A stretch of DNA of 64,000 nt from an uncultured Candidatus Rokubacteria bacterium. GTDB taxonomy: Bacteria; Methylomirabilota; Methylomirabilia; Rokubacteriales; CSP1-6. The position numbers and the translations under genes are program-made. The stretch lies in NCBI GenBank assembly GCA_963771355.1, contig CAVYTA010000005.1, positions 576,001-640,000 on the forward strand, read 5' to 3'. Below, one piece after another: positions 29,336 to 46,581 of the stretch (positions are counted from its first letter, which is position 1; each line of letters starts with the position of its first letter). The notes beneath the pieces were generated by a model that had not been told where the DNA came from, ran no database searches, and worked only from the letters and a program-made list of their open reading frames with translations.

Positions 29336-32086
29336 CTAGGCTGCCGAGGTGCGCTCGGCGGGCTCGGGCGTGTTGACCCGCTGGGGAGCGGGCCGCGGCA
29401 TCAGCCGCAACACCACCGGCAGGACCAGCAGGGCAGCGACGAGGGCGCACGCCGTGCCGATCGTCAGTAGCAGCCCCAGCCCGAGAATGCCCTGGTGGCG
29501 GGACACCATCATGCTCCCGAACCCCACGATGGTGGTGAAGGCATTGAGCGACACGCCCATCACCGCGCTCCGCTGGACGAGCGGGCCGCCGTGCTCGCGT
29601 CCCTCCAGATAGCTCATCACCACGTTGAGGCCGAACTCCGCCGCGGTGCCGATGATGAGCGGCAGGCCCCACACGTTGGCGAGCGTGAACTTGAGGCCGA
29701 ACACCCACATGAGGCCGATGGTCCAGAGCAGCCCGATCACCAGGGGCAGGAGCGCGAGACCGGTCTCGCGGAACCGGCGGAGCTTCAGGAAGATCAGGAC
29801 GCTGACGAGCACGAAGGCGTAGGCGGTGCCTTGAAGGTACGCGTGCTCCATGAGGCGGATCGCCTCGAAGGTGATGACGGGGGCGCCGGTGACGTCGGGA
29901 GCCACCGTGCGCAGCTCGCGCACGAAGCGCTCCGCCCCCTCGCGCTCCCAGATGTCCACCTTGGGATGGACCTGGAGCAGGAAGTGCCCGCTGGCGCCGA
30001 TGAACTTGCGGCGGAGCTCGTCGGGGACGTCGGCCAGCGTCACCGGCCGGGGCTGCAGGTTGCGCTGGAGCGCGTAGAACTTCGCCACGAAGTCCCGATA
30101 GAGCTGCGCCTGCAGGTGGGTGAGGGCGGGCTCGGCCACGTCGCGGTCGATGGTCTCCAGGCGCTTCAGCAAGGTGCCGCTCATCTCACGGACCTTGCGA
30201 AGCTCGGGGGGGAGCTTGTGGCTGCCCTCCGCCGCGGCCATGTCGAACCGGCGCTTGAGGTCGCGCACCACGCGGGCCAGGTGCTCGAGGTCCACCGGGC
30301 TCGAGCGGCCGATCTTCACCGGCGCCACCAGCGGGGCGAAGGTCTTGATGAGCGCGATCTTCTCCGGCTGATCCTCGGGGATGAGACGGAGCACGGAATC
30401 CACTTCGGACACGGTGGAGAGCTTCTCGAACCCCGCCTGCAGTCGCCGCAGCTCCGCCAGGCTGTCGGCGGAAACGAGGCCATTGAAGCCGGAGCGGCCG
30501 GTGGTGGCGAGGATGCGCTTTTCCCAGGCCACCGACTCCGTGCCCTTGGCCTGCAGGTTCAGCAGGTTGTAGTCGAAGGCCACCGACGGCAGGGCCCACA
30601 GCGACACCACGGTGATGGCGCCGGCGACGGTGAGCACGGCCACCGGATAGCGCGTGACCCGCTCGAGGAGCGGCACCCGGATCCGCTCCAGCTCGTGCGC
30701 GCGCGGCTGGTGGTCCCGGGGCCGGCGGGCGTGGCGGCGATCCACCAGGACCAGCACCGCCGGGAACACCGTCATCATGGCCAGCCACGAGAGCATGATG
30801 GCCAGTCCCGCGATGTAGCCCAGCTCCTTGATGCCGCGGAACTCCGTGAGCATCAGCACGAAGAAGGTGCCGCCCGCGGTGAGGGCGCCCAGCAGCATGC
30901 CGGGCCCGGTGCGGGCGGCGGTGATCTCGAGGGCCTCGTTGAGGCGGCGGCCGAGGAAGAGCTCCTCCTCGTAGCGGAAGAGAAAATAGATCCCGTAGTC
31001 GATGCCGATCCCGACCACGATGGAGATGAACATCACCGAGAAGATGGTGAGGTGGCCGAGGGTGAGGGTGATGACCCCCAGCGACCAGGCGATGCTCACC
31101 GCGAGCACGCCGAGCATCAGGATGGGCTTGCCCAGGCGCCAGTAGGCCAGCCCCATGATGCCCAGGGTGAGGACGAACGAGAGCACGGCGGCCACCTGGC
31201 TGTCCTGGAAGGCGGCCGACATCTCGTCGTTGGAGAGCACCGGAGCCCCGGTGACCCCCGCCTGGACGTTCGGGAACACCGCACGCAGGCGGGTCACCGC
31301 GTCCCGGATGACCTCGATGGCCTTGGCGTCGCCGGTGAAGCTCGACTTGTCGCCCTTGGGGGTCTCCACCAGCACGAAGAGGAGGCTCTTGTCGTCGGAG
31401 AGGAAGTAGCCGGCGTCGGGACCCGTGTCCTTGCCGAACGAGAAGAGGGTGGCCCAGGGGGAGCGGTAGGGGGTGGGCCGATCGAGCCGCTGCTCGATCT
31501 GCTCGAGCAGGACCTGCAGGAAGCGCGTGTCGGCGGGCCCTTCGTCGGCGATGCCGAGGTCGAACACGTTGTTCATGAAGGCCTGGGCGAACTGGACGTT
31601 CACTCCCTCGAGGAGCCGGGCCAGGCTGGGATCGTGGGCGAAGCCCTCCATGAACTCCTGATGGTCGAAGATCTTGTCGCGGATCTCCCGGAGCTTCTCG
31701 GTGGAGAGGTACAGGAGCTGGCGGCCCTCGAAGCGCTTGGGATCGATGCGGTACGACAGGCGCGGGAACTTCACCGGCGAGGCGCGGAGCTCCTGGACGA
31801 GGCGGCTCGCGTAGGCCTTGGCCGCCTCGAAGGTGGGAGCGTCCACCACCACCACGATGTCCTCGAGCTCGCCGAAGTCGCGCGCGTACTCCGCATACTT
31901 CGTCACGTAGCCCGCGTTCTGCGGCAGCACGTCGCGCCCGGAGGTCTTGAAGCCCATGCTCTGCACGGTGACGAGGATGCCGGCGGCGGCGAGGGCGAGG
32001 GCCAGGGTCACCGTCACCAGCGGGCGGCGGCAGGACAGCCGAACGAGCCGGCGAAGCAAGCGACCGGTTCGCGAGATGGCAATCAT
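29336..32086 (-). CDS. hpnN: MMPL/RND hopanoid transporter, HpnN-like
   Basis: Two SSD/MMPL halves (GVTGAPVL, GIGIDYGIY, TGAPVITFE, GFGSM) in the shc operon. Confidence 0.82.
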   Translation of the reverse strand: MIAISRTGRLLRRLVRLSCRRPLVTVTLALALAAAGILVTVQSMGFKTSGRDVLPQNAGYVTKYAEYARDFGELEDIVVVVDAPTFEAAKAYASRLVQELRASPVKFPRLSYRIDPKRFEGRQLLYLSTEKLREIRDKIFDHQEFMEGFAHDPSLARLLEGVNVQFAQAFMNNVFDLGIADEGPADTRFLQVLLEQIEQRLDRPTPYRSPWATLFSFGKDTGPDAGYFLSDDKSLLFVLVETPKGDKSSFTGDAKAIEVIRDAVTRLRAVFPNVQAGVTGAPVLSNDEMSAAFQDSQVAAVLSFVLTLGIMGLAYWRLGKPILMLGVLAVSIAWSLGVITLTLGHLTIFSVMFISIVVGIGIDYGIYFLFRYEEELFLGRRLNEALEITAARTGPGMLLGALTAGGTFFVLMLTEFRGIKELGYIAGLAIMLSWLAMMTVFPAVLVLVDRRHARRPRDHQPRAHELERIRVPLLERVTRYPVAVLTVAGAITVVSLWALPSVAFDYNLLNLQAKGTESVAWEKRILATTGRSGFNGLVSADSLAELRRLQAGFEKLSTVSEVDSVLRLIPEDQPEKIALIKTFAPLVAPVKIGRSSPVDLEHLARVVRDLKRRFDMAAAEGSHKLPPELRKVREMSGTLLKRLETIDRDVAEPALTHLQAQLYRDFVAKFYALQRNLQPRPVTLADVPDELRRKFIGASGHFLLQVHPKVDIWEREGAERFVRELRTVAPDVTGAPVITFEAIRLMEHAYLQGTAYAFVLVSVLIFLKLRRFRETGLALLPLVIGLLWTIGLMWVFGLKFTLANVWGLPLIIGTAAEFGLNVVMSYLEGREHGGPLVQRSAVMGVSLNAFTTIVGFGSMMVSRHQGILGLGLLLTIGTACALVAALLVLPVVLRLMPRPAPQRVNTPEPAERTSAA

Positions 32087-32123: not shown

Positions 32124-33197
32124 CTACTCGGCGGCGGCGATGAAGCGCGCGAGGCGCTCGTGCGCCTCGTCGTCCGACCATTGCTCGGGCGGGGACTTCA
32201 TGAGATAGGCGGAGGGCGCGGCGAGCGCGCCCTTGAGGCCTCGGTCCATGGCCATCTTGCAGCAGCGGATGGCGTCGATGACCACGCCGGCGGAATTGGG
32301 CGAGTCCCACACCTCCAGCTTCAGCTCGACATTGATGGGCTGATCGCCGAAACCGCGCCCTTCCAGGCGGATGTGGGCCCACTTGCGATCGGCCAGCCAC
32401 GGCACGTAGTCGCTGGGCCCGATATGAATGGAGTCGTCCGACATCTCGTGGGCGAGCTGGGAGCGCACCGAGTCGGTCTTGGAGGTCTTCTTCGACTCCA
32501 GCCGCGAGCGCTCGAGCATGTTGTAGAAGTCGGTGTTGCCCCCCACGTTGAGCTGGCTGGTCCGGTCCAGCCGGACCCCTCGGTCCATGAAGAGCCGGGT
32601 CAGCACGCGGTGCACGATGGTGGCGCCCACCTGGGACTTCACGTCGTCGCCCACCACCGGGAGGCCCCGGTCTTCGAAGCGGCGTCGCCAGTACTCTTCG
32701 CGAGCGATGAAGACCGGGATGCAGTTGACGAACCCGCAGCCGGCGTCGAGGATCTGCTCGACGTACCACTTGGTCGCCATCTCGCTGCCCACGGGCAGGA
32801 AGTTCACCACCACGTCGGTGCGGGTCTCCCGCAGGATGCCCGCGATGTCGGCGGTGGAGCCGGTCGCTTTGGTGATCACCTGGGAGAGATAGTGCCCGAG
32901 GCCGTCGTGGGTCATGCCCCGGTGGACGGGCACGCCCAGGTCGGGGACCTCCGCGAAGGACACCGTGTTGTTGGGCGCGGTGAAGATGGCCTTGGACAGG
33001 TCGGTGCCCACCTTGTGGGCGTCGATGTCGAAGGCGGCGGAGAATTCAATGTCGCCCACGTGGTAGGGACCCAGGCGCGGGCGCATGAGACCGGGGACGA
33101 ATCCGTCGTCCGGCGCGCTCCGGTAGTAGTGCACGCCCTGGACGAGGGCCGACGCGCAGTTCCCCACTCCCACGATCGCGACCCGCACTGCTCCCAC
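32124..33197 (-). CDS. ino1: myo-Inositol-3(1)-phosphate synthase
   Basis: [57 protein letters not shown] before GTG 33197. Confidence 0.93.
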
Positions 33198-33267: not shown

Positions 33268-34269
33268 TTACCCCTCCGCGTTCTCGTCGATCATCGATGT
33301 CGGAACCGGCGTGGGTCGGGCGGAGAGCGCGGCGAGGGTGAGCAGCCCGGCGGTGGCCCAGGTGCCCTCGCGCAGTCGGCGCACCAGCGTGTAGGACAGG
33401 CCGATCGCCCCGCCGTAACCGAAGGCGGCGAAGATCGCCATGTTGCCCCCCTCCAGCGCGCCGAGCGAGCCGGGAATCATGAAGCTCGCGAACTTCACCG
33501 CCGCGCCGAACGACTCCATCACCACCGCGGTGAGGAGGGTCACCGGCAGACCGAGAAAGTTGAGCACGAGGTAGATCTCGAGACTCCCCACCGTCCACGC
33601 GAGGAGATGCACGAGGACCGCGCCCACCAGGCGGCCCCGATGGCCACGGTAGAAGCGCAACAGCGCGCGATCCAGCCCCTCCAGCCGCTCCTGATTGCTC
33701 GAGTTCGGTCCCATGCCGAACCGCGCGAGGAGCCGGCCCCCGCGTCCGGCCGCTCCGAGGAGCTGGACCACGACGAAGCCGGTCACCGCGAGGGCCTCGA
33801 GCCCCAGGAGAATGGTCATCCCGGTGAGCACGGGCCCCGACACCGGCACCAGGGTCCGCGCGAGGACAAGTCCCAGCACGAGGAAGAGGCCCTGGCCGGT
33901 GACGATCGCGGTCTTGTCCACGATGACGGCGGCCAGGCCCTCGGGCACCGGCACCCAGTGACGGAGGAGGAACGCCTTGACGGGCTCGCCGCCCACGGAG
34001 GCGATGGGCGTGGTCGCGTTCACCGCCTCGCCGGCGAGCCGCGCGGTCCAGATCTTGGCGAAGGGCGGCACGTGATCGACGAAGGCGAGCCGCCAGGCGG
34101 TGGCGTCCAGGGTGGCGGTGAGGGCGTAGGGAAAGCAGATCACCACCAGCAGCCGCCAGGACAGCGTCCGGATCGAGTCCAGGATGGTGGTGAAGCCGAT
34201 CTGGTGGCCGAGGTAGGCGATCACGCCCACGCCCACCACCACGATCAGCGGACGGAGCAGTCGTCCCAC
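33268..34269 (-). CDS. Lysylphosphatidylglycerol-synthase-TM / flippase-like membrane protein (HpnL-like)
   Basis: [40 protein letters not shown]. Confidence 0.8.
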
Positions 34270-34302: not shown

Positions 34303-35493
34303 CTAGGACGCGGCCGTCCGGCCGCGGCGGATCCGGCCCACGCACGCGATCCAGTATGACTGCGAGCCGAGGGCCACCACGAGGGCCAGCGCGGGAAGGG
34401 TGGAGGGCGCCAGCCACCGGAGCAGGACGAAGCCGAGGAGCAGGAGATAGAAGAGATCGCGGTTGCCCATGTTCTTGAGCGCGCCGCCCACCGTCTCACC
34501 TACCGCGATCTCGCGCGGGAGGTAACGCGCGAAGAAGGCGCTGAGCGCCACGCCGGCCGATCCCAGCACGCCGATGACGGTGGTGACGGCTGGGCCCGCG
34601 GAGACCGCCATGCCCAGCACGAGCCCCGAGTGGATCACGGTATCGATGGCCCAGTCGAGGTGGGCGCCGAACCGTGACTCCTGGAAGGTCAGCCGGGCCA
34701 GCTCGCCGTCGCAGTGGTCCACCACGCAGGCCATCAGGTAGACCACCACGCCCGCCGCGGCGGACAGCGGCGTGGCGTGCCAGAAGGCCCACACCGCGCC
34801 GAGGCCGATGCTGAGGCTCAGCAGGCTCACCTGATTGGGCGTGGCCGGGGTGCGGACCAGGAGGCGCGTGAGTCCGCGCGAGAGCCGCCGGTGCAGGTAG
34901 GAGTCCACGCCGGTGTCGTTGTCGGTGCCGAGCCCGGCATAGAGGAGCCGGTCGGCCTCCATGAGATCGCCGCGCCCGCGCGCGCAGAAGCACAACCCGG
35001 CGGCGGTGACCTGCTTGAGTCGTGTGGCCTCCACGTGGCGCACGAGCACCTGGCCCAGGGGCTCGCCGGCGGCGAGGGCGCAGGCCAGCCGGTCTGCGGT
35101 GTCCCCCATGACGCGGAGGACGGGGGCGCCGGCTTCCAGGGACTCCGTCAGCGCGGTCTCGGCGGTCTCCGCGAAGTCGGCCAGCAGCGGGGCCAGGGTG
35201 CGCGCCTCCACCAGCGCGGCGGCGGGCACGAGCAGGCAGCCGCCGGCGGCGAGGGCGCGCACGGCGCCGGCGTCGCCAGCGCCGAGCCAGCGGACGCGGC
35301 CGCCGAGACCGCGGGTTCCGGCGAGCAGGCGCTCGAGCTCGGCGCTGCGGAGCTGCGCGGGCACGGCGACGATCTCCGCGCCGGCGCGCGCCGCCGCCAC
35401 GATGGCCCGGAGCGCGAGAGGACGACCGGCCACCGGCACCGCGGCGAGGGCGGTACTGGCCGAATCGGTCAGGTAGAGGACGACCGCGGCCAC
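34303..35493 (-). CDS. CDP-alcohol phosphatidyltransferase with degenerate N-terminal nucleotidyltransferase-like domain
   Basis: TPNQVS and DHCDGELARLTFQESRFGAHLDWAID (DxxDGxxAR...GxxLDxxxD); N-terminal VAGRPLALR. Confidence 0.88.
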   Translation of the reverse strand: MAAVVLYLTDSASTALAAVPVAGRPLALRAIVAAARAGAEIVAVPAQLRSAELERLLAGTRGLGGRVRWLGAGDAGAVRALAAGGCLLVPAAALVEARTLAPLLADFAETAETALTESLEAGAPVLRVMGDTADRLACALAAGEPLGQVLVRHVEATRLKQVTAAGLCFCARGRGDLMEADRLLYAGLGTDNDTGVDSYLHRRLSRGLTRLLVRTPATPNQVSLLSLSIGLGAVWAFWHATPLSAAAGVVVYLMACVVDHCDGELARLTFQESRFGAHLDWAIDTVIHSGLVLGMAVSAGPAVTTVIGVLGSAGVALSAFFARYLPREIAVGETVGGALKNMGNRDLFYLLLLGFVLLRWLAPSTLPALALVVALGSQSYWIACVGRIRRGRTAAS

Positions 35494-35494
35494 C

Positions 35495-36235
35495 TCAGTG
35501 CTCGAGCCGCTCGATCCGCGGCAGCACGTCGGTTTCCGCGCGGCGAAGGTCCTCGACGAAGTCCACCTCGGTCCACGGCAGGCCGGTGACGTCCACCCAG
35601 CCCACCGGCACGCGGGTGAGGAGCCGGTGCAGCGCGTCCTCGTACTCGTTGGTGCCGCCGGTCTCGTCGATGGACTCGCCGAGGAGCCGGATGTACTCTG
35701 CCGCGTGCTGGGTGCCGCACTTGAAGAAGCCGATGCCCTCGCCGACCACTTCCCAGTGCTCCGGCACGAACTTCTTGCCCAGCGCGATGACGCGATCGCC
35801 GACCCCGTAGAGCTTGACCTCCTCGCCGGTATCGGTGAAGCCGCGGTCGATCAGCAGCGCGCTGGGCGCCGGGCAGGCGATGAGGCGGGCGAGAAACGCG
35901 TGGGGGAAGAGGACGTCGGCGTCCATCACCAGCGTGTGGTCGCGGACGAGGGTATCGCGCGCGCGCCACAGGGACAGGATGGAGCCCTTCTGGTACTCGG
36001 GGTTCTCCACGAAGCTGATCCGCATGTCGCCGCGCCGCGTCCCTGCCGCCGCCCGCACCTGATCCTGGCAGTGGCCGACCACGATCACCGTCTCGTCCAC
36101 GCCGGCCGCGGCGAGGGAGCCCAGCATCCGGTCCAGCAGGGGCCGCCCCGCGATGGGCAAGAGACACTTGTGCGTGTGATCGGTCAGCGGGGCGAGCCGG
36201 CGCGCCACCCCCGCGGCGAGCACGATGGCCTTCAT
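35495..36235 (-). CDS. Cytidylyltransferase (LicC/PntC/IPCT-like NTP transferase)
   Basis: MKAIVLAAGVARRL, KCLL.IAG, VMDADV, GEEVK, GEGIGF, EYED, WTEVDF.EDL. Confidence 0.88.
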   Translation of the reverse strand: MKAIVLAAGVARRLAPLTDHTHKCLLPIAGRPLLDRMLGSLAAAGVDETVIVVGHCQDQVRAAAGTRRGDMRISFVENPEYQKGSILSLWRARDTLVRDHTLVMDADVLFPHAFLARLIACPAPSALLIDRGFTDTGEEVKLYGVGDRVIALGKKFVPEHWEVVGEGIGFFKCGTQHAAEYIRLLGESIDETGGTNEYEDALHRLLTRVPVGWVDVTGLPWTEVDFVEDLRRAETDVLPRIERLEH

Positions 36236-36864
36236 CGCCCGCTCCCGGCGGCCACCCGCCCGAGGTCGCGCAGGGCCCCGCGAAACCGGTCCCGGATCTC
36301 CTCGGGCGGGTAGGGGATGCGTGGCGCCGGCTGCTCCTCCGGGGTGACCTTGGCCAGGATGAACGACGGGCCGTCCCCGCGCATGGCGGCGGCGGTGGCG
36401 TCGCGCAGCGCGGCCGCCTCCGTCACCGCGACCGTGGTGGCGTAGCCGGCGGCGGCGGCGAGCGCATCGAGACGCGCGTGGCGCGACGGGGACATCTGGT
36501 TACCGGTGGAGCCATACACCTCGTTGTCGAAGACGACGTGGACCAGGTTTCGCGGCCGCCGGCTTCCGGTAGTGCCCGCCCCGAGCACGGGTGCGCCGCC
36601 GATCATGGGCAGGATGCCGAGGTTCATGAGCAGGTTGCCGTCGCCGTCGAAGACCACGGTGGTGAGGTCGGGGCGGGCGAGCGTGACTCCGAGCCCGATG
36701 GCCGAGGCCAGCCCCATGGAGCCGATCATGTAGAAGTTCTGCGGCCGATCTCCCACCGAGAACGACTCGCGGCAGATGAAACCGTTGGCATGCACGACGG
36801 GCGCATCGCCGATCGCGCCGAGCGCGGCACGCAGCGCCTCCAGGCGCGAGATCCGGGGCGTCAG
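36232..36864 (-). CDS. ThDP-dependent phosphonopyruvate/sulfopyruvate decarboxylase beta subunit; start uncertain (CTG 36864, or ATG 37086/37077 across the insertion)
   Basis: NGFICRE, NFYMIGSMG.ASAIGLG, DGDGNLLM, FDNEVYGSTGNQ. Confidence 0.85.
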   Translation of the reverse strand: MTPRISRLEALRAALGAIGDAPVVHANGFICRESFSVGDRPQNFYMIGSMGLASAIGLGVTLARPDLTTVVFDGDGNLLMNLGILPMIGGAPVLGAGTTGSRRPRNLVHVVFDNEVYGSTGNQMSPSRHARLDALAAAAGYATTVAVTEAAALRDATAAAMRGDGPSFILAKVTPEEQPAPRIPYPPEEIRDRFRGALRDLGRVAAGSGR

Positions 36865-36865
36865 G

Positions 36866-37591
36866 TCAGCCCGCGAGGATTCGCGTGAGGGCGGACTTCC
36901 GACAATCACGCGCGGCGGTGAATCTCTGTCTGTTATCAGCGGGGGCCTCGAAATGGCCCCCGCTCTCCCCGTCCGCACTCGATGCGCGGGCCCCCGCTCT
37001 CCCCCCGTCCGCACTCGATGCGCGGATCGCCGCTTTCTCCCCGTCACCGCCGCGCGTGCCGTGCGCCCCCGATGCATGTTCTCCATGACCGCGCGTGGCT
37101 ATGACGCCGGGCGGGAGGAGCAGCGCCACCGGCTGGCTGAGGCGCTCCGCCTCCGCGCGGGCCCAGGCGATGTCGGCGGCCACGCTGCCGGCGGTGAGCA
37201 CGCGATGGGGCACCGCGATGAGCTCGAGGAGGCGCGGGGAGATGTCGCCCATCACGAGGTGCTCGGGGGCGTCCTTGCCCCCATGGCCGCGCCAGGTGAC
37301 GAGGAGCAGGGTGGGAAAGCGGTACATGAGCGACAGGGAGACCAGCGCGTTGAGGCTGGTGCCGAGCCCCGAGTTCTGCATGATCACCATGGGCAGGCGG
37401 CCTGCCATCCACGCCCCCGCCGCCAGGCCCACCGCGACGTCCTCGCGCACGGCGGGCACGTACGGCAGGCGGGGATGGGTCTCCAGCGCGGCGATGACCT
37501 CGCCCACCAGCGAGCAGGGCACGCCCGTGAAGAAGTCGAAGCCTTCCGACTCGGCGACGGCGACGAAGTCCTTCCCGCTGACGGCGCCTAT
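36866..37591 (-). CDS. Phosphonopyruvate/sulfopyruvate decarboxylase alpha subunit; apparent ATA start, repeat-derived C-terminal tail
   Basis: FFTGVPCS, REDVAVGLAAGA, MQNSGLG, TWRG..GKDAPEH..MG; ATAG overlap with upstream stop. Confidence 0.85.
   Translation of the reverse strand: MGAVSGKDFVAVAESEGFDFFTGVPCSLVGEVIAALETHPRLPYVPAVREDVAVGLAAGAWMAGRLPMVIMQNSGLGTSLNALVSLSLMYRFPTLLLVTWRGHGGKDAPEHLVMGDISPRLLELIAVPHRVLTAGSVAADIAWARAEAERLSQPVALLLPPGVIATRGHGEHASGAHGTRGGDGEKAAIRASSADGGRAGARASSADGESGGHFEAPADNRQRFTAARDCRKSALTRILAG
36907..37058. repeat. 152-bp element bounded by 15-bp perfect inverted repeats, with an internal hairpin and ~35-bp tandem duplication (REP/MITE-like)
   Basis: CACGCGCGGCGGTGA (36907-36921) / TCACCGCCGCGCGTG (37044-37058); hairpin AGCGGGGGCC-TCGAAAT-GGCCCCCGCT; two copies of GGCCCCCGCTCTCCCC(CC)GTCCGCACTCGATGCGCG. 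Confidence 0.75.
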
Positions 37592-39252
37592 TTCTTGATC
37601 TCCGCCCAGGCCCGCTGATAGTCCTCGAAGGTATCCACCTCGAGCCAGCCCTTGTAGACGTCCACGCAGTGGACCCGCTCGCCGCGCGCCACCAGCTCCT
37701 GGAGGAGGTCGGTGAAGGCCGCGTGCTCGGCGGAGTCCGCCTCGTGGAAGCGCCCGCCGCCGGCCGCCCGCGCCTCGTCCCAGGCGCGCCGGAGCGCCTG
37801 GGTCCCGCCCTCGGAGAAGAGCGCCATGCCGATGAACTCGCCGTTGGCGCGATCCGGCGCCACCCGGGCGCCCACGGTGACGAGGGTGTCGTCGCCCCCG
37901 CTGGTCAGCGCACGCAGGCCGGAGGCGGGCGCCTGCTCCGTCACCACGAGGTCCAGCGGCTTCGAGAGCGGCAGCAGGCGGTCGCGCTGGTCCACCCACG
38001 CGCGGTCCACCACCACCGCGCAGTCCGCCTCCGCGCGGAGGAGCCGCTCGAGGACGGAGCGCTCGAAGAGGATGTCCGAGTAGAGGAACAGCACGCGCCC
38101 GGACAGCACCGGCGCGGCGGCGAAGAGGGACACGCACTCCCCGCTCTCCTCGTAGCGGTCGTTGTCGAAATAGCGCAGGCCGGGCACGGTGACCTCTTCC
38201 TTCCGGTATCCGCGCACCACCGCGATGTCCTGCACCCCGCACGCGCGCAGGGTGTCCACCTGCCGCTCGAGGATGGTGCGCCCCTTGATGTCCAGCATGC
38301 ACTTGGGCCGGTTTTCCGTGAGCGGCAGCAGCGACTTGCCCGAGCCGGCGGCAATGATCACCGCGCGCACCTGGCTCTCCTGCGGCAGGTACTCCGCCTC
38401 GATGGCCTCGAACTCCGCCACCCCCACGTGCCGATAGATCTCCTCCAGCGGCACGATGTGCGGGTCCAGCGCGTCCAGCCGGCGCTCGCGCGCGAGGGTG
38501 CCCAGCGTGGTCTCCATGCCGCGCACCGCGCCCCGCAGCACCTGGTTGGCCCAGATCACCATCTTCACCCCCGCGCCCTCCAGCTCCTCGAAGGTCACGG
38601 AGGGATAGAGGGTGGGCACCACCACCACCGGCGTGGGGCGCTCCCAGAGGCGCATGAACTCCAGCACCTCCGCCGCCGTCTTCGACTTGGAGTGCATGAG
38701 GATCATGTCGGCCCCCGCGTCCGCATAGGCGTGGGCGCGCCGGAGCGCCTCCTTCATGCCCCAGCCCGCGATGAGGGCCTCCACCCGCGCGATCACCACG
38801 AAATCCGGGTCCCGGCGCGTCTTCACCGCGGCCCGGATCTTTCCCGCGAACTCCTCCACCGACAGGAGCTCGCGCCGCATGCCCGGATAGAGGCTGCACT
38901 TCTTGGGGAAGATATTGTCCTCCATGCAGATCCCCGCCACCCCGGCGCGCTCGTACTCCTCCACCGTGCGCACCACGTTGACGACGTTGCCGTAGCCGTT
39001 GTCGGCGTCGGCGATGACGGGAATGGACACCGCGTCGTTGATGTAGCGGGCGGTCTCGAGGTTCTCCGTCATGGTGAGCAGGTTCACGTCCGGCATGGCG
39101 CGCTGGGCCGCCGACACCGCGAAGCTCGACGACCACACCAGGGGGAACCCGGCGGCCTCGATGAGGCGGGCGGACAGCGCGTCGTGGGCGCCGACCATGG
39201 GGACGAGCCCCGGACGGCGGAGAAGCGAGCGCAACAGGGCGGCCTTGGTCAT
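37588..39252 (-). CDS. pepM: PEP mutase-like enzyme (ICL/PEPM superfamily) fused to a C-terminal nucleotidyltransferase
   Basis: GAHDALSARL, IADADNGYG, EDNIFPKKCS, IARVEALIAG, ILMHSK, VVVPT.Y, IWANQ; second domain AVIIAAG..PKCML..YSDILF..WLEVDTFEDY. Confidence 0.78.
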   Translation of the reverse strand: MTKAALLRSLLRRPGLVPMVGAHDALSARLIEAAGFPLVWSSSFAVSAAQRAMPDVNLLTMTENLETARYINDAVSIPVIADADNGYGNVVNVVRTVEEYERAGVAGICMEDNIFPKKCSLYPGMRRELLSVEEFAGKIRAAVKTRRDPDFVVIARVEALIAGWGMKEALRRAHAYADAGADMILMHSKSKTAAEVLEFMRLWERPTPVVVVPTLYPSVTFEELEGAGVKMVIWANQVLRGAVRGMETTLGTLARERRLDALDPHIVPLEEIYRHVGVAEFEAIEAEYLPQESQVRAVIIAAGSGKSLLPLTENRPKCMLDIKGRTILERQVDTLRACGVQDIAVVRGYRKEEVTVPGLRYFDNDRYEESGECVSLFAAAPVLSGRVLFLYSDILFERSVLERLLRAEADCAVVVDRAWVDQRDRLLPLSKPLDLVVTEQAPASGLRALTSGGDDTLVTVGARVAPDRANGEFIGMALFSEGGTQALRRAWDEARAAGGGRFHEADSAEHAAFTDLLQELVARGERVHCVDVYKGWLEVDTFEDYQRAWAEIKK

Positions 39253-39277: not shown

Positions 39278-39922
39278 CTAGGGAGTCCGGGGCGCCGGCT
39301 TTTTCTTGGGATCGTCGTCCAGCGACACCTCGGCCTGCTTGCTCTTCATGCGCCGGATGAGCTCGCCGTAGGAGGCGGTCTGGATGATCTTGTTGAACTG
39401 CGTGCGGTAGTTGGACACCAGGCTCACGCCTTCGATGCTGACGTCGTAGACGAGCCAGCGCTCGCCGCGCTTGACCAGCCGATAGTCGATGGGCACCTCG
39501 GTGCCGTTCTTGGTGACGAGCCGGGTGCTCACCACGCTGTTGTCGCTCTCGATCTTCTCGCCGGTGTAGAGGATCTTCTCCCCGCCGTACTGGTCGATCT
39601 TGGAGATGTAGGACCGTTCGAGGAGATCGGCGAAGAGCGAGACGAACTCCTCGTGCTCCGCGTCGGTGCGGCCCTGCCAGTGGCGGCCGAGGGAACGCCG
39701 CGCGATCTCGCCGAAGTCGAAGATCTCGTTGGCGATCTTGCGCACGGCGGCGCGCCGCTCCTGCACCCGGTTCTCGCCCTTGTACAGGGGGTTCTCGAGG
39801 GTCTTGACCACCCGCTCGATGGCGCCCTTGAGCTGGTCCGTGGGGATGCCGGCGCTGGCCACGGGCGCCAGCAGCACCACCAGCGCGGCCACCGCTACAC
39901 CGATCATGCGAGCACGAATCAT
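39278..39922 (-). CDS. mlaC: MlaC/Ttg2D (HpnM-like) periplasmic lipid shuttle
   Basis: Signal peptide; FDFGEIARRSLG..W, IDYRL, VYDVSIEGVSLVSNYRTQF. Confidence 0.88.
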   Translation of the reverse strand: MIRARMIGVAVAALVVLLAPVASAGIPTDQLKGAIERVVKTLENPLYKGENRVQERRAAVRKIANEIFDFGEIARRSLGRHWQGRTDAEHEEFVSLFADLLERSYISKIDQYGGEKILYTGEKIESDNSVVSTRLVTKNGTEVPIDYRLVKRGERWLVYDVSIEGVSLVSNYRTQFNKIIQTASYGELIRRMKSKQAEVSLDDDPKKKPAPRTP

Positions 39923-39959
39923 CGGGAACCCTCCACTGTCTGCCGTGACATGGTCGCCG

Positions 39960-40400
39960 CTATACCTTTCCGAAGACGTACTTCGAGAGCAGCTCCTCGA
40001 TGTCCACCGGCGGCTCCACTTCCGTGATCCGGCCGTTGGGCTTGATGATCTTCTCCGATCCGCCGGGGTTGATCCGGATGTACTTCTCGCCGATGAGCCC
40101 ACGCGTCTTGATGGACGCGATCGAGTCTTCCTGCAGCTTCACATCGGTCCTGATGCTCATGATCACGCGGGCCTGGTAGTCCGACAGGGTGATGCCGTCT
40201 ACGCGCCCGATCTCCACCCCCGCGATCTCCACGGTGGAGCCCGTCTTGAGCCCTCCCACGGTGGGGAAGTCCGCGGTGATGGTGTAGCCGCCGCCGCTGA
40301 AGAGCTCCACCCGCCCGAGCTTGATGGAGAGCCAGCCCAGCGCAAGGATGCCGACCAGCACGAATACCCCCACCGCCATGTCCAGCGTCGACCGTCTCAT
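39960..40400 (-). CDS. mlaD: MlaD (MCE domain) protein
   Basis: VGGLKTGSTVEIAGVEIGRV, KTRGLIGEKYI. Confidence 0.92.
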   Translation of the reverse strand: MRRSTLDMAVGVFVLVGILALGWLSIKLGRVELFSGGGYTITADFPTVGGLKTGSTVEIAGVEIGRVDGITLSDYQARVIMSIRTDVKLQEDSIASIKTRGLIGEKYIRINPGGSEKIIKPNGRITEVEPPVDIEELLSKYVFGKV

Positions 40401-40481
40401 TCGGCGCCCCCTGATTGGATCTTGCCGTGCCTGGCGCGCATCGTCTACCTCTTTTCCTGGCCCCCGTGCGCGGACGGGGTC

Positions 40482-41228
40482 TCAGCGAGCCGTCGGCGCG
40501 CTCTCGATCTCGCCGCGGATGAACTGCTGCACCACCGGATTCGCGGAGGCCTGGATGCCCTCCGGGGTGGCACATTCCACGATCACCCCGTCGTGGAGCA
40601 TGGCCACGCGGTCCGCGATCCGGAAGATCTCCGGGATCTCGTGGCTCACCACCACCGCGGTGAACCGAAACTTCCGGTGCAGCTCCACGATCAGGTGATG
40701 GATGGTGTTGACCAGGATGGGGTCCAGGCCGGTGGTGGGCTCGTCGAAGAAGACCACCCCCGGCTCTGTCACCAGGGCCCGCGCGATGGCCACCCGCTTG
40801 CGCATGCCGCCCGAGATCTCCGCCGGGTTCTTGTGCCCCATGCCCTGGAGGCCCACCTGCACGAGCTTTTCCTCCACCCGCTGCCGGACCTCGGTCGCCG
40901 GGATGCGGACCTTTTCCCACAGGGGAAAGGCCACGTTCTCGAATACCGACATGGAGTCGAAGAGGGCGCCGCCCTGGAACACCACCCCGTAGCGCTCGCG
41001 GATGCGGTCGAGCGCGGAGCGTCGCAGCCGGGTGATCTCGGTGCCGTCCACGAAGATGCGACCCGAGTCGGGCCGCAGCAGGCCCACCAGGTGCTTGAGC
41101 AGCACCGACTTGCCGCCCCCGCTCCGGCCGATGATCACGATGATCTCACCGGAGGCGACCTCCAGGTCGATGCCGCGCAGCACGGGCTGGGCGCCGAACG
41201 ACCGCCGCAGGTCTTCCACCTTGATCAT
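40482..41228 (-). CDS. mlaF: MlaF ABC ATP-binding subunit
   Basis: GRSGGGKS, VFQGGALFDSM, ISGGMRKRVAIAR, FDEPTTGLDP. Confidence 0.92.
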   Translation of the reverse strand: MIKVEDLRRSFGAQPVLRGIDLEVASGEIIVIIGRSGGGKSVLLKHLVGLLRPDSGRIFVDGTEITRLRRSALDRIRERYGVVFQGGALFDSMSVFENVAFPLWEKVRIPATEVRQRVEEKLVQVGLQGMGHKNPAEISGGMRKRVAIARALVTEPGVVFFDEPTTGLDPILVNTIHHLIVELHRKFRFTAVVVSHEIPEIFRIADRVAMLHDGVIVECATPEGIQASANPVVQQFIRGEIESAPTAR

Positions 41229-42022
41229 GGCAGTACCGAGCCCAGGAAGTAGTCCCACACGAGGATGAGGACCGAGGACAGCACCACCGCCTGGGTGGTC
41301 GCGCGCGCCACCCCCTCCGCCCCGTGCCCGCAGTAGTAGCCCTTGTAGGTGCACACCCAGGTGACGATGATGCCGAAGGAGAGCGACTTCCAGAAGCCGG
41401 TCATGATATCGGTCCGGTCCACGAAGGTCTGCATCTCCCCGAAGTAGGTCCCGGGGGACAGGCCCAGCAGCTCCACTCCCACCAGGTACCCGCCCAAGAT
41501 GCCCACCACGTCGAAGATCGCCGTCATGAGCGGGAAGGTGATGATCCCGGCCACGATGGGCGGGACTATCAGATAGCGCACGGGGTTGAGCGCCATCACG
41601 GTGAGGGCGTCGATCTGCTCGGTGATCTTCATGATCCCGAGCTCGGCGGTGAGTGCCGATCCGGCCCGGCCGGTGACGATGAGGGCGCAGAGAACGGGTC
41701 CCAGCTCGCGGATGATCGACAGCGCGACCGCGGGGCCCAGGAAGGCCTCGGAGCCGAACCGCGAGAGCACGAAGAAGATCTGGAGCCCGAGCACCATGCC
41801 CGTGAAGGCGCCGGTCAGGATCACGATGGTGAGCGAGCGGAAGCCGATGAAGTGGATGCGCTCCACCAGGCGGGCGAGCTTGAAGGGAGGAACGAAGATA
41901 TAGGTGATCGCCTGGACCAGGAAGCGGCCGAAGCGACCCATGGACTGCAGCACCTGGAGGGTCCCGGCCCCGAGCCCTCCGATGAGGCGGACCGGCAGTG
42001 CGCCGGCGACCGGCCCCGTCAT
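41225..42022 (-). CDS. mlaE: MlaE ABC permease
   Basis: RELGPVL, GRAGSALTAELG.MKITEQIDAL, ATTQAVV; ATGA overlap with shc stop. Confidence 0.92.
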   Translation of the reverse strand: MTGPVAGALPVRLIGGLGAGTLQVLQSMGRFGRFLVQAITYIFVPPFKLARLVERIHFIGFRSLTIVILTGAFTGMVLGLQIFFVLSRFGSEAFLGPAVALSIIRELGPVLCALIVTGRAGSALTAELGIMKITEQIDALTVMALNPVRYLIVPPIVAGIITFPLMTAIFDVVGILGGYLVGVELLGLSPGTYFGEMQTFVDRTDIMTGFWKSLSFGIIVTWVCTYKGYYCGHGAEGVARATTQAVVLSSVLILVWDYFLGSVLP

Positions 42023-43992
42023 CCGCACGCGGTCCGATAGACCCCCAGCGCCCAGAGGGGGAAGTACTTGGCGTACAGGTGATACTTGAGATAGAAGACG
42101 CGGGGAAAACCGGTGCCGTTCCAGAGCGGGTCCGCCCACGCCCCCTCCTCGCGCTGCGTGTCGAGGAGATACTGGATGCCGCGCTCCACCACGGGGCCGG
42201 TGGTGCGGCCGGCGGCGAAGAGCCCCAGCAGCGCCCACGCGGTCTGGCTCGGGATGGACTCTCCACGCCCCGCCCACGCGGGATCCTCGTAGGAGGCCAA
42301 CGTCTCGCCCCAGCCGCCGTCGGCGTTTTGCCGCGCTTCCAGCCACGCCACCGCGCGGCTCACGTACTCCCTCGAGCAGTCCTCGCCCATGGCGCGCAGC
42401 CCGCGGAGTACCGACCAGGTACCGTAGATGTAGTTCGCGCCCCAGCGGCCGTACCACGGCCCGTCCGCGTGCTGATTGCGGCGGAGATAGCCCAGCGCGC
42501 GCAGGGCGGCGGGATGGTCGAGCGTCTCACCCAGCATGCCCAGGAGCTCGAGGCCCCGCCCGGTGAGGTCCTCGGTGGAGGGATCGAGCAGGGCGCCGTG
42601 ATCGGCGAAGGGGATATTGTTCAGGATGAGCCGGTTGTTGTCGGCGTCGAAGGACGCCCAGCCGCCGTCCGAGCCCTGCATGCCCAGGAACCAGGCCATG
42701 CCGCGCGTGAGCGCGCGCCGGCGGCGCTCGGCGTCGAGGCCCTCGGTGCGGCTCAGCGCCATCATCACCATCGCGGAGTCGTCGAGATCCGGATAGAAGT
42801 CGTTGTGGTACTGGAACGGCCAGCCGCCGGGCGGCACGCCGGGCCGCTTGGTCGTCCAGTCCCCGGGCACCGTGATCTGCTTGTCGATCATCCACTCGCC
42901 GGCGCGCACCAGGGAGTGATGGTCGGCGGGAAGGCCGGACTCGATGAGCGCGTTGACCGCCAGCGCGGTGTCCCACACCGGCGACACGCAGGGCTGATAG
43001 TGCAGCGAGGTCGTGGTCTCGACCCCCAGCGCCTCGACCTCCTTCAGCTGGCCGCGGATCAGGGGATGGTCCTCGTCATAGCCGAGGCAGCGCAGCGCCA
43101 GCACCGCGTTCACCATGGCGGGGAAGATCCCGCCCAGGCCGCCCGGCACGGCCAGGCGCTCCTCCACCCACCGGCGCGCGGCGTCGAGCGCGCGGGCGCG
43201 CAGCGGACGCGGGCCCAGCCGCTCCCACCCCTTCAGCGCGTCGTCCACGCCGATGAAGAAGTTCTTCCAGAGAAAGGTCTTCGGCGAGAAGGGGCGGGGG
43301 ACGCGGTGGAAGCGGAGGCTGGCCCGCTCGCGCGGCACCACCCACAGCTCGTCCAGGCGCGCGGAATCGGGCAGGCGCATGACGGGCTTGGCGTCCATCA
43401 GGATGATTAGCGGCACGATGACCGCCCGCGACCAGTAGGAGACCTCGAGGAGGTTGAAGTACGACCAGCGGGGCAGCAGCATGATCTCCACCGGCATGGC
43501 GGGGATGCCCGACCAGTCGTATTCCCCGAACTGCGCGAGGAGGATCTTGGTGAAGACATTGGCCTGCACCGGCCCGCCGAGCTGATGGATCAGCGCTCGC
43601 GCACGGACCATGGCGAGATCCTCCGGCGACACGCCCGCCAGCTTCATGGCGAAATACGCCTTGATGGTCGCGGAGAGGCTGGCCGGTCCGCCCTCGTAGA
43701 GACTCCAGCCCCCATCGGCGAGCTGCTGCGCGCGGAGGTACGTCACGATCTTGGCCTCGCGCTCGCGATCGACGCGATCCATGAGGCGGCCGAACAGAAG
43801 GTACTCGCTGGTGATGGTGCTGTCCGCCTCCAGCTCGCCCACCCAGTGTCCGTCCGGCTCCTGCGTGGAGAGGAGCAGCGCCTGGGCGCGCTCGATCGCG
43901 GCATCCACGCGCGACGACGCCGCGCGCGCCGGCGCCGCCCCCGCTGAGGGCGCGTGTTTCGCGCGGATCGACTCGGTTTTCGGGGCGAACAT
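42019..43992 (-). CDS. shc: Squalene-hopene cyclase
   Basis: YPDLDD catalytic motif, QW repeats (Q..DGGW), SPVWDT, GRWGANYIYGT, GTGFPRVFYLKYH.Y. Confidence 0.97.
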   Translation of the reverse strand: MFAPKTESIRAKHAPSAGAAPARAASSRVDAAIERAQALLLSTQEPDGHWVGELEADSTITSEYLLFGRLMDRVDREREAKIVTYLRAQQLADGGWSLYEGGPASLSATIKAYFAMKLAGVSPEDLAMVRARALIHQLGGPVQANVFTKILLAQFGEYDWSGIPAMPVEIMLLPRWSYFNLLEVSYWSRAVIVPLIILMDAKPVMRLPDSARLDELWVVPRERASLRFHRVPRPFSPKTFLWKNFFIGVDDALKGWERLGPRPLRARALDAARRWVEERLAVPGGLGGIFPAMVNAVLALRCLGYDEDHPLIRGQLKEVEALGVETTTSLHYQPCVSPVWDTALAVNALIESGLPADHHSLVRAGEWMIDKQITVPGDWTTKRPGVPPGGWPFQYHNDFYPDLDDSAMVMMALSRTEGLDAERRRRALTRGMAWFLGMQGSDGGWASFDADNNRLILNNIPFADHGALLDPSTEDLTGRGLELLGMLGETLDHPAALRALGYLRRNQHADGPWYGRWGANYIYGTWSVLRGLRAMGEDCSREYVSRAVAWLEARQNADGGWGETLASYEDPAWAGRGESIPSQTAWALLGLFAAGRTTGPVVERGIQYLLDTQREEGAWADPLWNGTGFPRVFYLKYHLYAKYFPLWALGVYRTACG

Positions 43993-43998
43993 CGGTCC

Positions 43999-44007
43999 AT
44001 ACTAGCA
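43999..44007 (-). promoter_or_regulatory. Extended -10 element for a probably leaderless shc transcript
   Basis: Minus strand TG-C-TAGTAT-GGACCG-ATG (6 nt to the start codon, no room for a normal RBS). Confidence 0.55.
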
Positions 44008-44225
44008 CACGGTTTTGGGTAATCCGTACGACGGCCAAACTTGAAAACATTCGCGCCCTTGGCCCCGATCGCGCCCGGATTCACACGGCCGCCGTCCGCC
44101 CCGCCGGACGACGCCCCGCGCCCGACCGACGGGGACCGAGGCGAGCCGTCGACGATGCGGTGGCGCGGGGGCGGGGGCGCTGGACGAACGCCCGCGCGGC
44201 GGCCCCCAAGTCGTCGCGTTCTTCG

Positions 44226-44259
44226 GGGCGCGCATCGTCATCGGGCGCGCATCGCCATC
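44226..44259. repeat. 17-bp tandem direct repeat in the shc/hpnH divergent region
   Basis: GGGCGCGCATCGTCATC / GGGCGCGCATCGCCATC. Confidence 0.6.
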
Positions 44260-44491
44260 GGCCGGCGTGCTGAGGGCATCCACGCGGCTTCCCCCTCCGG
44301 GCCGGGGGCTCGGCCATCGCGGGCTCGCTTTCGGTCCCGGGTTAACCATTTGAATCGGCAAGTTGACCCGCGCCGGCCCGGGAATCCTGCTCCACGCGCT
44401 GGTCTTTCTGGTAATCTGGACCGGGTCTGGCGGCCGTGCGGACGCGCTCGGCACAGAACCACCTTTACTTACTGAGGAGATATCGTCACCG

Positions 44492-45508
44492 ATGAGTGTG
44501 CCGGTCTCGCAGATGTGGACAGTGGCGACCTACGTGCTCCGCCAGCGGCTGGCGGGGCGCAAGCGCTATCCGCTCGTCCTCATGCTCGAGCCGCTGTTCC
44601 GGTGCAACCTCGCCTGCGCCGGGTGCGGGAAGATCCAGTACCCCGCCCAAGTGCTCCGCAAGCACCTTGCGGTGGAGAAGTGTCTTCAGGCGGTGGAGGA
44701 GTGCGGCGCCCCCATGGTCAGCATTCCCGGCGGCGAGCCGCTCATGTATCCGGAGATCGACCGGCTGGTGGCCGAGCTGGTGAAGCGGAAGAAGTACGTC
44801 TATCTCTGCACTAACGCCATCCTCCTCAAGGAAAAGCTCGACCTCTTCACCCCCTCCAAGTACCTGTCCTTCAGCGTGCACATGGACGGACTCCGAGAGG
44901 AGCACGACGAGGCGGTGTGCCGGGACGGGGTTTACGACCAGGCGGTGCCGGCCATCCAGGAGGCGCTCGCCCGCGGCTTCCGGGTCACCACCAACACCAC
45001 GCTCTTCGACGGGGCCTCACCGCTGCGGGTGCGCGCGTTCTTCGATGAGATGATGCACCTGGGCGTGGAGGGGATGATGGTGTCGCCGGGCTACAGCTAC
45101 TCGAAGGCGCCCGACCAGGAGCACTTCCTCCGGCGGAGCCGGACCAGCCAGCTCTTCCGCGCGATCCTCTCGAATCCCAAGAAGCACTGGCGCTTCAACC
45201 AGTCCCCGCTCTTCCTTCGCTTTCTCATGGGCAAGCAGGACTACGAGTGCACGCCCTGGGGGAACCCGACCTACAACATGTTCGGCTGGCAGCGGCCGTG
45301 CTATCTCCTGCAGGACGGCTACGCGGAAACCTTCGCCGAGCTGATGGAGACCACGCCCTGGGAGAACTACGGGCGCAAGAGCGGCAACGAGAAGTGCCAG
45401 GATTGCATGGTCCACTGCGGGTTCGAGGCCACCGCGGTACACCACACCTTCAACTCCGCGCGCGGCTTCGCGGAGACGGTGCTGGTCACCATCACCGGAA
45501 AGCTCTGA
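44492..45508 (+). CDS. hpnH: Adenosylhopane synthase, radical SAM
   Basis: RYPLVLMLEPLFRCNLACAGCGKI, SIPGGEPL, CTPWGNPT, CQDCMVHCGFE; GAGGAG RBS. Confidence 0.95.
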   Translation: MSVPVSQMWTVATYVLRQRLAGRKRYPLVLMLEPLFRCNLACAGCGKIQYPAQVLRKHLAVEKCLQAVEECGAPMVSIPGGEPLMYPEIDRLVAELVKRKKYVYLCTNAILLKEKLDLFTPSKYLSFSVHMDGLREEHDEAVCRDGVYDQAVPAIQEALARGFRVTTNTTLFDGASPLRVRAFFDEMMHLGVEGMMVSPGYSYSKAPDQEHFLRRSRTSQLFRAILSNPKKHWRFNQSPLFLRFLMGKQDYECTPWGNPTYNMFGWQRPCYLLQDGYAETFAELMETTPWENYGRKSGNEKCQDCMVHCGFEATAVHHTFNSARGFAETVLVTITGKL

Positions 45509-45515
45509 GCCGGGC

Positions 45516-45842
45516 GTGAGCCTGCAGGGCTGGGTGCCCGACATCGGACCGTACCTCACCCTCGAGGAGGTCATCGAGCACGCCTTCGACTATCGCGGCA
45601 ACGTGACGGTCGTGCGGCGGGACGGCTCCGAGCTGGTGGGCTACCTCTTCAACCGCGACTCGAGCGCGCCCGAGCCGTTCGTCCAGCTCATCGACGAGGA
45701 CGGCAACGGTCCCCTCCGGGTGCGCTACGCCGAGATCGCCAGCGTGCGGTTCACGGGCAAGGACACCGCCGAGGGCAATTCGTGGAAGGCCTGGATCGAG
45801 CGCAAGGAGCGCGAGAAAGCGCAGCCCGCGCCCGACGCGTAG
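45516..45842 (+). CDS. Small hypothetical protein in the hopanoid operon
   Basis: Tightly packed between hpnH and hpnG; AFDYRGNVT, GYLFNR, FTGKDTAEGNSW. Confidence 0.75.
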   Translation: MSLQGWVPDIGPYLTLEEVIEHAFDYRGNVTVVRRDGSELVGYLFNRDSSAPEPFVQLIDEDGNGPLRVRYAEIASVRFTGKDTAEGNSWKAWIERKEREKAQPAPDA

Positions 45843-45846
45843 GCGC

Positions 45847-46578
45847 GTGAGCGATCTCCTCATCCTGACGGCCGTCGAGCTCGAGGCCGCGGGGCTGGCC
45901 CGCGAGCTCGAGCTGCCCGCCGAGGCCGCGCGGGCGCACCGTGCCTCGGATCGCTCCTCTCCCTATCGCTCCTACGGCCGGCCCGGCCTCCGCATCGTCC
46001 CCGTCGGCCTGGGCGCGCTCCTCCTCTCCGAGCGCTGGGCCGCCTGCCGGGACGGATTCACGGCGCCCCTCGTGATCTCCGCCGGCGTGTGCGGGGGACT
46101 CGACCCGCGCCTGGCCCCCGGCGACCTCGTCGTGCCCGCGCGCGTCCTCGCTCCCGACGGCGAGACGCTGGCGGTGGCGCCGGCGGCGCATGCGCGGGCG
46201 CTCGCGGCGGCGGGGACGGCGGCCACCGGCACCCTCGTGACCACCCTGACCGTGGTGGGCTCGCCCGCCGCCAAGGCCGCGCTCCGGTCCGCCACCGGCG
46301 CGGAGGCGGTGGACATGGAGTCCGCCGCCATCCTCGCCGCCGCGCAGGCGGACGGGCTGGAGGCGGTGGTCGTACGCGCTGTATCCGACGGGGCCGCGGA
46401 GTCGGTGCCGGCCGAGCTCTCGGCGCTCCTGGGCCCGGAGGGGCGGCTGCGCGGCGGACGCGCGCTCCTTCTTGCGCTCACCCGCCCGCAGGCCTTGCCT
46501 CGCGCCCTCGAGCTCCGGCGCGGCAGCCGCCGCGCGCTCGCCGCGGTGGCGCGCGTCCTGGCGGCCCTGCGGGCCTAG
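45847..46578 (+). CDS. hpnG: Hopanoid-associated nucleoside phosphorylase/nucleosidase
   Basis: ISAGVCGGLDP.L..GDLV, AVDMES, RAVSD; context downstream of hpnH. Confidence 0.82.
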   Translation: MSDLLILTAVELEAAGLARELELPAEAARAHRASDRSSPYRSYGRPGLRIVPVGLGALLLSERWAACRDGFTAPLVISAGVCGGLDPRLAPGDLVVPARVLAPDGETLAVAPAAHARALAAAGTAATGTLVTTLTVVGSPAAKAALRSATGAEAVDMESAAILAAAQADGLEAVVVRAVSDGAAESVPAELSALLGPEGRLRGGRALLLALTRPQALPRALELRRGSRRALAAVARVLAALRA

Positions 46579-46581
46579 CCG

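Follow-up and report, generated by a model that had tools for sequence, protein, structure and literature searches.

The window, the whole 64,000-nucleotide stretch of Candidatus Rokubacteria DNA analysed here, carries on its minus strand a 554-aa open reading frame (37588..39252) in which a PEP-mutase-type domain (residues 1-291) is fused to an NTP_transf_3 nucleotidyltransferase domain (PF12804) starting at residue 295. The sequence-only reading, which had singled out the lid loop of the first domain, made no mention of the second. The loop, at residues 111-120 (38893..38922, minus strand), does read EDNIFPKKCS, with the codons AAT for Asn113, AAG for Lys117, TGC for Cys119 and AGC for Ser120. 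Contigs from two other runs span it, one of them identical (X9 record 31) and the other with one synonymous change at 38914 (X7 record 20); neither has the canonical motif. Among 120 listed homologues, of which those bearing names belong to Methylomirabilota or Ca. Rokubacteria, 114 have EDN..CS and 1 has EDN..SS, the remaining 5 being fragments without the loop. These contigs and the conservation among homologues rule out a sequencing error as the source of the loop. The other PepM-type features noted in the earlier reading are likewise intact: PD (55), DADNGYG (82-88), ARVEA (155-159), MHSK (186-189) and WANQ (234-237).

The fusion gene lies in the middle of a minus-strand operon that begins with squalene-hopene cyclase (shc, 42019..43992) and continues with the lipid-transport genes mlaE, ABC ATPase, mlaD and mlaC/hpnM (39278..42022), directly upstream of the fusion. 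Downstream follow a phosphonopyruvate-decarboxylase-like gene (36232..37591), a stand-alone PntC/LicC-like nucleotidyltransferase that retains the signature Arg and Lys (35495..36235), a CDP-alcohol phosphotransferase with an N-terminal extension (34303..35493), an HpnL/LPG-synthase-TM (flippase-like) membrane protein (33268..34269), inositol-3-phosphate synthase (ino1, 32124..33188) and an HpnN-like MMPL/RND transporter (29336..32086). On the plus strand are the divergent hpnH, a 108-aa ORF, hpnG, hpnA and hpnD (44363..48467) and, on the other side, a 2OG-Fe(II) oxygenase gene (26774..27544), whose product is 51% identical to its counterpart in a Mycetohabitans phosphonate cluster and which lies within the operon in several relatives. 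The gene order is repeated in 20 fetched relatives as far as their contigs extend, with hpnL or shc absent in some. The 108-aa ORF between hpnH and hpnG (45516-45842, plus strand) is conserved and has no NCBIfam match. In 14 of the 20 relatives a CruF-like hydratase gene (L060:3919-4698 and its relatives) lies between shc and hpnH; it is absent from the window at 43993-44450. One record titled Ca. Nitrosocosmicus, an archaeon (L158), carries the operon, with proteins 92-98% identical to those of the window, and is probably mis-binned or mislabelled. Contigs of the RNA run X15 also lie on the locus; they cannot show transcription.

The decarboxylase gene reads in two frames in the window, being 2 nt short at a G run near 36967-36970 in a repeat-bearing linker. 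The gene is a single ORF in most relatives and in the 98%-identical L158, and the two extra bases appear in contigs of two of four runs. This makes a 2-nt homopolymer assembly error probable, and we therefore set aside a naturally split ComDE-type decarboxylase in the window; in other phyla the split state occurs naturally. No contig fully bridges the repeat, and the two-frame state may instead be a strain-level frameshift. The repeat, of about 36 nt and with about 17 copies in the genome, lies inside the interdomain linker (36850-37040), and the linkers of same-genus relatives are 30-45 aa longer, in frame, than those of other family members. Of additional note, the gene has no ATG, GTG or TTG start in the window, in L158 or in L075: an in-frame ATA (37591-37589, minus strand), the probable start, overlaps the upstream TAG and is preceded by GGAG at 8 nt, and in relatives the overlapping start codon at this junction is GTG or CTG. 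Decarboxylases that accompany the EDN form score under the TIGR03297 cut-off (270-292 bits vs 312.5), those accompanying canonical PepM reaching 304-305; the decarboxylase also matches sulfopyruvate-decarboxylase models, under cut-off.

By sequence, the nearest solved protein is the PEP mutase of S. platensis (281 bits), ahead of phosphonopyruvate hydrolase (238) and methylisocitrate lyase (125). An AlphaFold model of the protein (58-sequence alignment, pLDDT 96) gives the same order, with a predicted TM of 0.96-0.97 and an rmsd of 1.0-1.1 to the S. platensis enzyme, a TM of 0.94 to the hydrolase and of 0.89 to lyases. With PEP mutase (PepM/Ppm, EC 5.4.2.9; TIGR02320; PDB 5UNC from Streptomyces platensis, 1PYM/1M1B from Mytilus edulis) the protein shares 41-49% identity and the equivalents of W44, D58, D85, D87, E114, K120, S123, L124, R159 and H190 (Mytilus numbering). 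All Mg2+ ligands (D58, D85, D87, E114), all phosphoryl ligands (R159, H190, S123) and the lid lysine K120, here Lys117, thus have their equivalents. It differs at two lid positions, Asn113 standing for Lys116 and Cys119 for Asn122, so that it fails the EDKx5NS motif used by published surveys. TIGR02320 is its best-scoring model, yet at 293.6 bits it stays under the curated cut-off of 319.55. Failing both motif and cut-off, the protein is filed here as a variant outside formal PepM membership.

We compared these residues across 88 EDN..C domains, taking the metal and phosphoryl ligands from the available text of a review (PMC7916636). D55, D82, E111, K117 and R156 are invariant, H187 and S120 are each present in 87 of the 88, and D84 in 77; no lyase-specific residues were found in any of these domains. 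In nine lyase rows the loop goes on with Gly, and His never stands at the H187 position. The gene itself has a dN/dS of 0.05-0.10 against five same-genus genomes, and of 0.05-0.28 over 26 loci. Asn or Ser replaces the Cys in some group members (P0150, P0239, P0207 and L074, the last with a complete AEP operon). The Cys-to-Ser example may rest on one record. Asn recurs at this position among the EDN rows, which suggests that Cys and Asn are interchangeable.

Phosphonopyruvate hydrolase (PalA; TIGR02321; PDB 2DUA) resembles the protein in fold, in 44% identity and in having a residue other than Asn at the 122 position, but there it has Thr, whereas our protein has Cys119; Lys189 replaces the hydrolase Arg188, a weak marker, Lys being found there in two of the three hydrolase-type rows as well. 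The protein scores 260 bits with the hydrolase model, against a cut-off of 374, and differs further in its nucleotidyltransferase fusion, its separate clade and its biosynthetic neighbours, PalA having a transporter and a PLP aminotransferase. With 2-methylisocitrate lyase and related K(K/R)CG(H) enzymes (TIGR02317; 185 bits against a cut-off of 354) it shares the lid K-[KR]-C, the Mg ligands and the barrel fold at about 30% identity. Where lyases have Gly-His after the Cys and an acidic residue (Glu) at the His190 position, it has Ser-Leu (KKCSL; Ser-Leu/Phe in the group) and His187. The same genome encodes separate KKCGH and KRCGH enzymes, and no second, canonical PepM was found among its seven PF13714 matches, of which the loops of four were read. 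In a separate observation, stand-alone EDKxxPKDNS proteins from another family of the same class (L052-L054) score higher with the hydrolase model (338) than with the PepM model (302) and yet pass EDKx5NS; they are possible false positives of that motif.

The domain order is that of the Ppm-PF12804 fusions, the commonest Ppm fusion type in the available text of Rice et al. (2019; PMC6697681). Our protein would fall among the sequences that the same paper removed as motif-less, 22 of which were fused. The Arg of the nucleotidyltransferase signature that Rice et al. found important, within the consensus GxG(T/S)R..PK, is missing from the fused domain. It is also missing from the nucleotidyltransferase fusions of canonical Rokubacteria PepM, while the stand-alone copy in the window has it.

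Trees were built without the loop columns, by FastTree from 225 rows (5 fragmentary and 6 redundant rows excluded) and by IQ-TREE from 85 hand-picked rows (LG+G4, bootstrap not fully settled); L233, a lyase, was treated as one in the tree tests. EDN and EDK proteins join apart from the lyases with a support of 98 in FastTree and 100/98 in IQ-TREE, and the phylogeny thus places the query with PepM and hydrolase. Canonical PepM and hydrolase form a subgroup (95; 91/97), with most EDN rows outside it. The query falls outside the EDK clade in the best tree, though other roots remain, and the EDN rows are paraphyletic in the IQ-TREE run. The three hydrolase-type rows group together as a separate clade within canonical PepM, well away from the query. 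AU tests, on groups named only after the tree was seen, did not reject the EDN rows as one sister clade (p=0.23) or a root within canonical subgroup B (p=0.13), and gave p=0.027 for a root within canonical subgroup A. Two KRCG/KRCA-loop proteins with PISK and PTxF motifs (P0232, P0238) branch as sister to the PepM/hydrolase group. Because the lid pair is Q..C in lyases, N..C in the EDN group and K..N in canonical enzymes, we favour a Cys that was inherited rather than newly gained: its probable source is the K(K/R)CG loop that lyase ancestors had, EDK..NS being the later state, on a root that is not settled. The EDN form may therefore be the older form of the enzyme, and the earlier description of the loop as a hybrid is probably the wrong picture, even if not every other root is rejected. 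A bolder version, which we consider rather unlikely, would make EDN..CS a surviving ancestral PEP mutase derived from a lyase-like enzyme, EDK..NS and hydrolase a later offshoot, the Cys a participant in phosphoryl migration (possibly covalent), and the Rokubacteria product a hopanoid with a phosphonate head group. Our literature search found no description of such a hopanoid.

We surveyed 150 genomes of the family, each with a completeness of 70% or more. The EDN form occurs in 28 of these, with 73-100% identity to the query (27 loops read), and a canonical PepM scoring above the TIGR02320 cut-off in 24 (EDK..NS confirmed by reading the loop in 12). Partial matches were seen in 4. The two forms never occur together; 4.5 genomes with both would be expected if the forms were independent, an expectation that kinship among the genomes qualifies. 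By hand tally, with three unpublished genomes (G071, G203, G204) among the 98 others, the decarboxylase is present in 28/28 EDN genomes, 23/24 canonical genomes and 59/98 others, the aminotransferase in 27/28, 24/24 and 47/98, and the second nucleotidyltransferase in 27/28, 23/24 and 54/98. The nucleotidyltransferase region was fetched for 11 canonical genomes. Ten of them have this gene in the hopanoid operon, and in all ten the EDN gene is absent there; the decarboxylase is absent from the operon in seven, where it lies beside canonical pepM instead, and kept in three. In G199, G070 and G141, from three genera, the hopanoid operon keeps the decarboxylase without the EDN gene, and canonical pepM is elsewhere. 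This replacement by the canonical enzyme is the strongest indirect sign that the two have the same function.

The 59 genomes that keep the decarboxylase without a full PepM often keep it in the same operon, and a PF13714 search of five near-complete ones found no PepM of either type in any of them. Since PepM-less relatives retain them, the neighbouring genes are independent of the mutase, and adjacency is a weaker proof of function than it might appear. Salvage of external phosphonates would explain such retention. Across Rokubacteria (L244-L251, L259-L272), single operon genes or whole blocks have dropped out in many different combinations, the losses being clean and following gene boundaries; often the decarboxylase is the last operon gene left in a genome without PepM.

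The loop is found well beyond this family. The codon pattern EDNx[FY]PKxCS[LF], run on a GTDB collection of 185,579 species, matches about 520 stretches in many phyla, a total estimated from 15 of 64 parts. All 120 of the matches listed are PepM-like; 80 came with flanks and 54 with at least 13.5 kb. Within 7 kb in these 54 full-length loci, the decarboxylase occurs in 44 (it is absent in 10), an AEP-aminotransferase-like gene in 27, the NTP fusion in 47 and a CDP-alcohol transferase in 24. Squalene-hopene cyclase occurs in only 5, and the association with hopanoid genes is thus not a general one. Among the carriers are Nitrospira, Planctomycetota, Polyangiaceae (with Sorangium and Minicystis in culture), Binatia, Acidobacteriota and Actinomycetota. 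One EDN-form protein (P0125) is fused to the alpha half of the decarboxylase. In all five large-contig genomes checked the EDN form is the sole PepM-like gene and the decarboxylase is present; at E<=1e-60, no AEP aminotransferase was found in Sorangium or Minicystis.

Based on these findings, we propose that the EDN..CS protein is likely to be a working PEP mutase that starts an aminoethylphosphonate (AEP) lipid pathway of a predicted cluster type, a proposal drawn from the conserved residues, the predicted fold, the gene context and the distribution relative to canonical PepM. The same set of seven genes appears in the 'Burkholderiales_CDP-OH' or Group 1 predicted phosphonolipid clusters, as described in the available text of Li and Horsman (2022; PMC8942020), citing Yu et al. 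(2013): a Ppm-PntC fusion, Ppd, AEP aminotransferase, a second PntC, a 2OG oxygenase, a CDP-alcohol transferase and an LPG-synthase-type protein. Six of these are in the window, and the unlinked aminotransferase gene is elsewhere on the contig; it lies within the operon in 3 of 20 relatives (L071, L073, L074). Five of the seven Mycetohabitans cluster genes have their best genome-wide match in the window, and the CDP-alcohol transferase has its second best there. The set in the window differs from the Burkholderiales clusters in that its mutase is non-canonical and in its placement between squalene-hopene cyclase/mla genes and ino1/hpnN. According to that text, their products are uncharacterised and the cluster type is a predicted one; it also mentions that squalene synthase and cyclases adjoin ppm in Nitrosococcus, which it reads as hinting at a phosphonoterpene.

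In the proposed scheme, the mutase would turn phosphoenolpyruvate into phosphonopyruvate, with Mg2+ held by D55, D82, D84 and E111 and the migrating phosphoryl group by R156 and H187. The lid would close with K117 and S120, and Cys119 would stand in for Asn122 by packing or weak hydrogen bonding. The decarboxylase, whose adjoining gene provides the linked consumer typical of PepM, would pull the unfavourable equilibrium towards phosphonoacetaldehyde; the unlinked aminotransferase would then give AEP and the stand-alone nucleotidyltransferase CMP-AEP. The CDP-alcohol transferase could put the CMP-AEP moiety on a lipid or polyol, a hopanoid or inositol lipid being a guess from the neighbours.

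Another possibility, which we hold to be quite unlikely, is other pyruvyl chemistry, namely phosphonopyruvate hydrolysis or lyase-type C-C cleavage, with the decarboxylase using salvaged phosphonopyruvate or sulfopyruvate. According to the available text of the review PMC7916636, Asn122 is believed to contact the phosphonyl oxygens, and the hydrolase/mutase switch is mostly ascribed to Asn122Thr. A change at this position, which is implicated in catalysis, can thus alter the chemistry; our search found no mutant kinetics for N122. The hydrolase score (260 vs 294 with the PepM model), the persistence of the decarboxylase in many relatives without any PepM and its matches to sulfopyruvate-decarboxylase models also point this way. 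Set against them are the absence of the lyase Gly-His and Glu and of the hydrolase Thr, the Lys at position 189, the distant clade of the hydrolase-type rows, the replacement of the EDN form by canonical PepM, and a nucleotidyltransferase fusion and aminotransferase/CDP-alcohol transferase linkage that fit synthesis. The earlier suggestion of a different chemistry feeding the decarboxylase found no positive support. A covalent route, in which Cys119 accepts the phosphoryl group and phosphonopyruvate is made through a phosphocysteine, seems very improbable: the Cys stands at a position implicated in phosphonyl contact, is retained across many phyla and has a catalytic equivalent in lyases, for which C123S structures exist, but some group members have Asn there instead, and all residues of the dissociative mechanism are retained. 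We scarcely credit a weak or dead domain kept as a scaffold or ligand-binding partner in a cell that scavenges phosphonates, as clean whole-gene losses in many relatives (which mark the gene as dispensable) and the missing Arg of the fused domain might be read, given the strong purifying selection, the invariant metal and phosphoryl ligands and the lack of the same Arg from canonical Rokubacteria PepM fusions.

If the EDN..CS protein is a working PEP mutase, the filters used for counting would pass it over. EDKx5NS is required in the available texts of Rice et al. (2019), Li and Horsman (2022) and PMC12723261. In that of Acker et al. (bioRxiv 10.1101/2020.11.04.368217), the fourth paper to use it, up to two mismatches are also accepted beside a TIGR03297 gene; this relaxed rule may catch part of the group, but EDN-form decarboxylases score under the TIGR03297 cut-off. 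A cryptic clade discarded by motif filters, as the sequence-only reading had suspected, is supported by the residues, fold, tree and gene context, and the protein slips under the TIGR02320 cut-off as well. As for its size, a pattern admitting both loop forms, which fits 86 of 88 EDN..C and 92 of 99 canonical reference rows, gave among 120 sampled metagenome loci 102 EDK..NS, 9 EDN..CS (95% interval 3-14%), 5 EDN..NS and 4 EDK..SS. The suspected undercount thus holds as a large one only in some lineages: by the motif filter it is about 8% overall, which is modest, and over half in this family. HMM-based tools may already catch part of it: according to the available texts, antiSMASH relies on profile models (PMC10320115) and phosphonate clusters are enriched in Nitrospirae (Sharrar et al., PMC7298704), so that some EDN..CS loci have already been counted, their loop passed over without comment. 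Our literature search found no description of an EDN..CS PepM; the supplements of Rice et al. (2019) and antiSMASH 7 might list such proteins.

Several related loops were seen alongside. EDN..NS, which also fails the motif filter, accounts for 5 loops among the 120 from metagenomes and 3 among the 31 on viral contigs (L314, L324, L359, L400, L410, L425, L439 and L447; P0131, P0135, P0198 and others are further examples). The EDKTFPKDSS loops (L306, L308, L328, L339), 4 of the 120 metagenome matches, resemble variants of the hydrolase in which Ser takes the place of Thr. On viral contigs (L417-L447), EDN..CS was found in none of 31 PepM-type loops, 28 of which are canonical. Among the best 150 cluster representatives, a set biased towards the query, 135 cover the domain: 90 canonical, 16 EDN..CS, 13 EDN..NS and 16 other.

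PepM is the marker gene by which phosphonate producers are counted. If the EDN form is active, the motif held to be diagnostic would be wrong for about 8% of metagenome PepM-type genes (about 12% including EDN..NS) and for over half of those in this family, which is abundant in soil; the candidate phosphonate lineages would then also include Nitrospira, Polyangiaceae, Planctomycetota and Binatia. The EDN form would also offer a natural test of the role of Asn122 and a candidate intermediate between the lyases and the mutase, with Sorangium cellulosum So ce56 and Minicystis rosea as cultured carriers.
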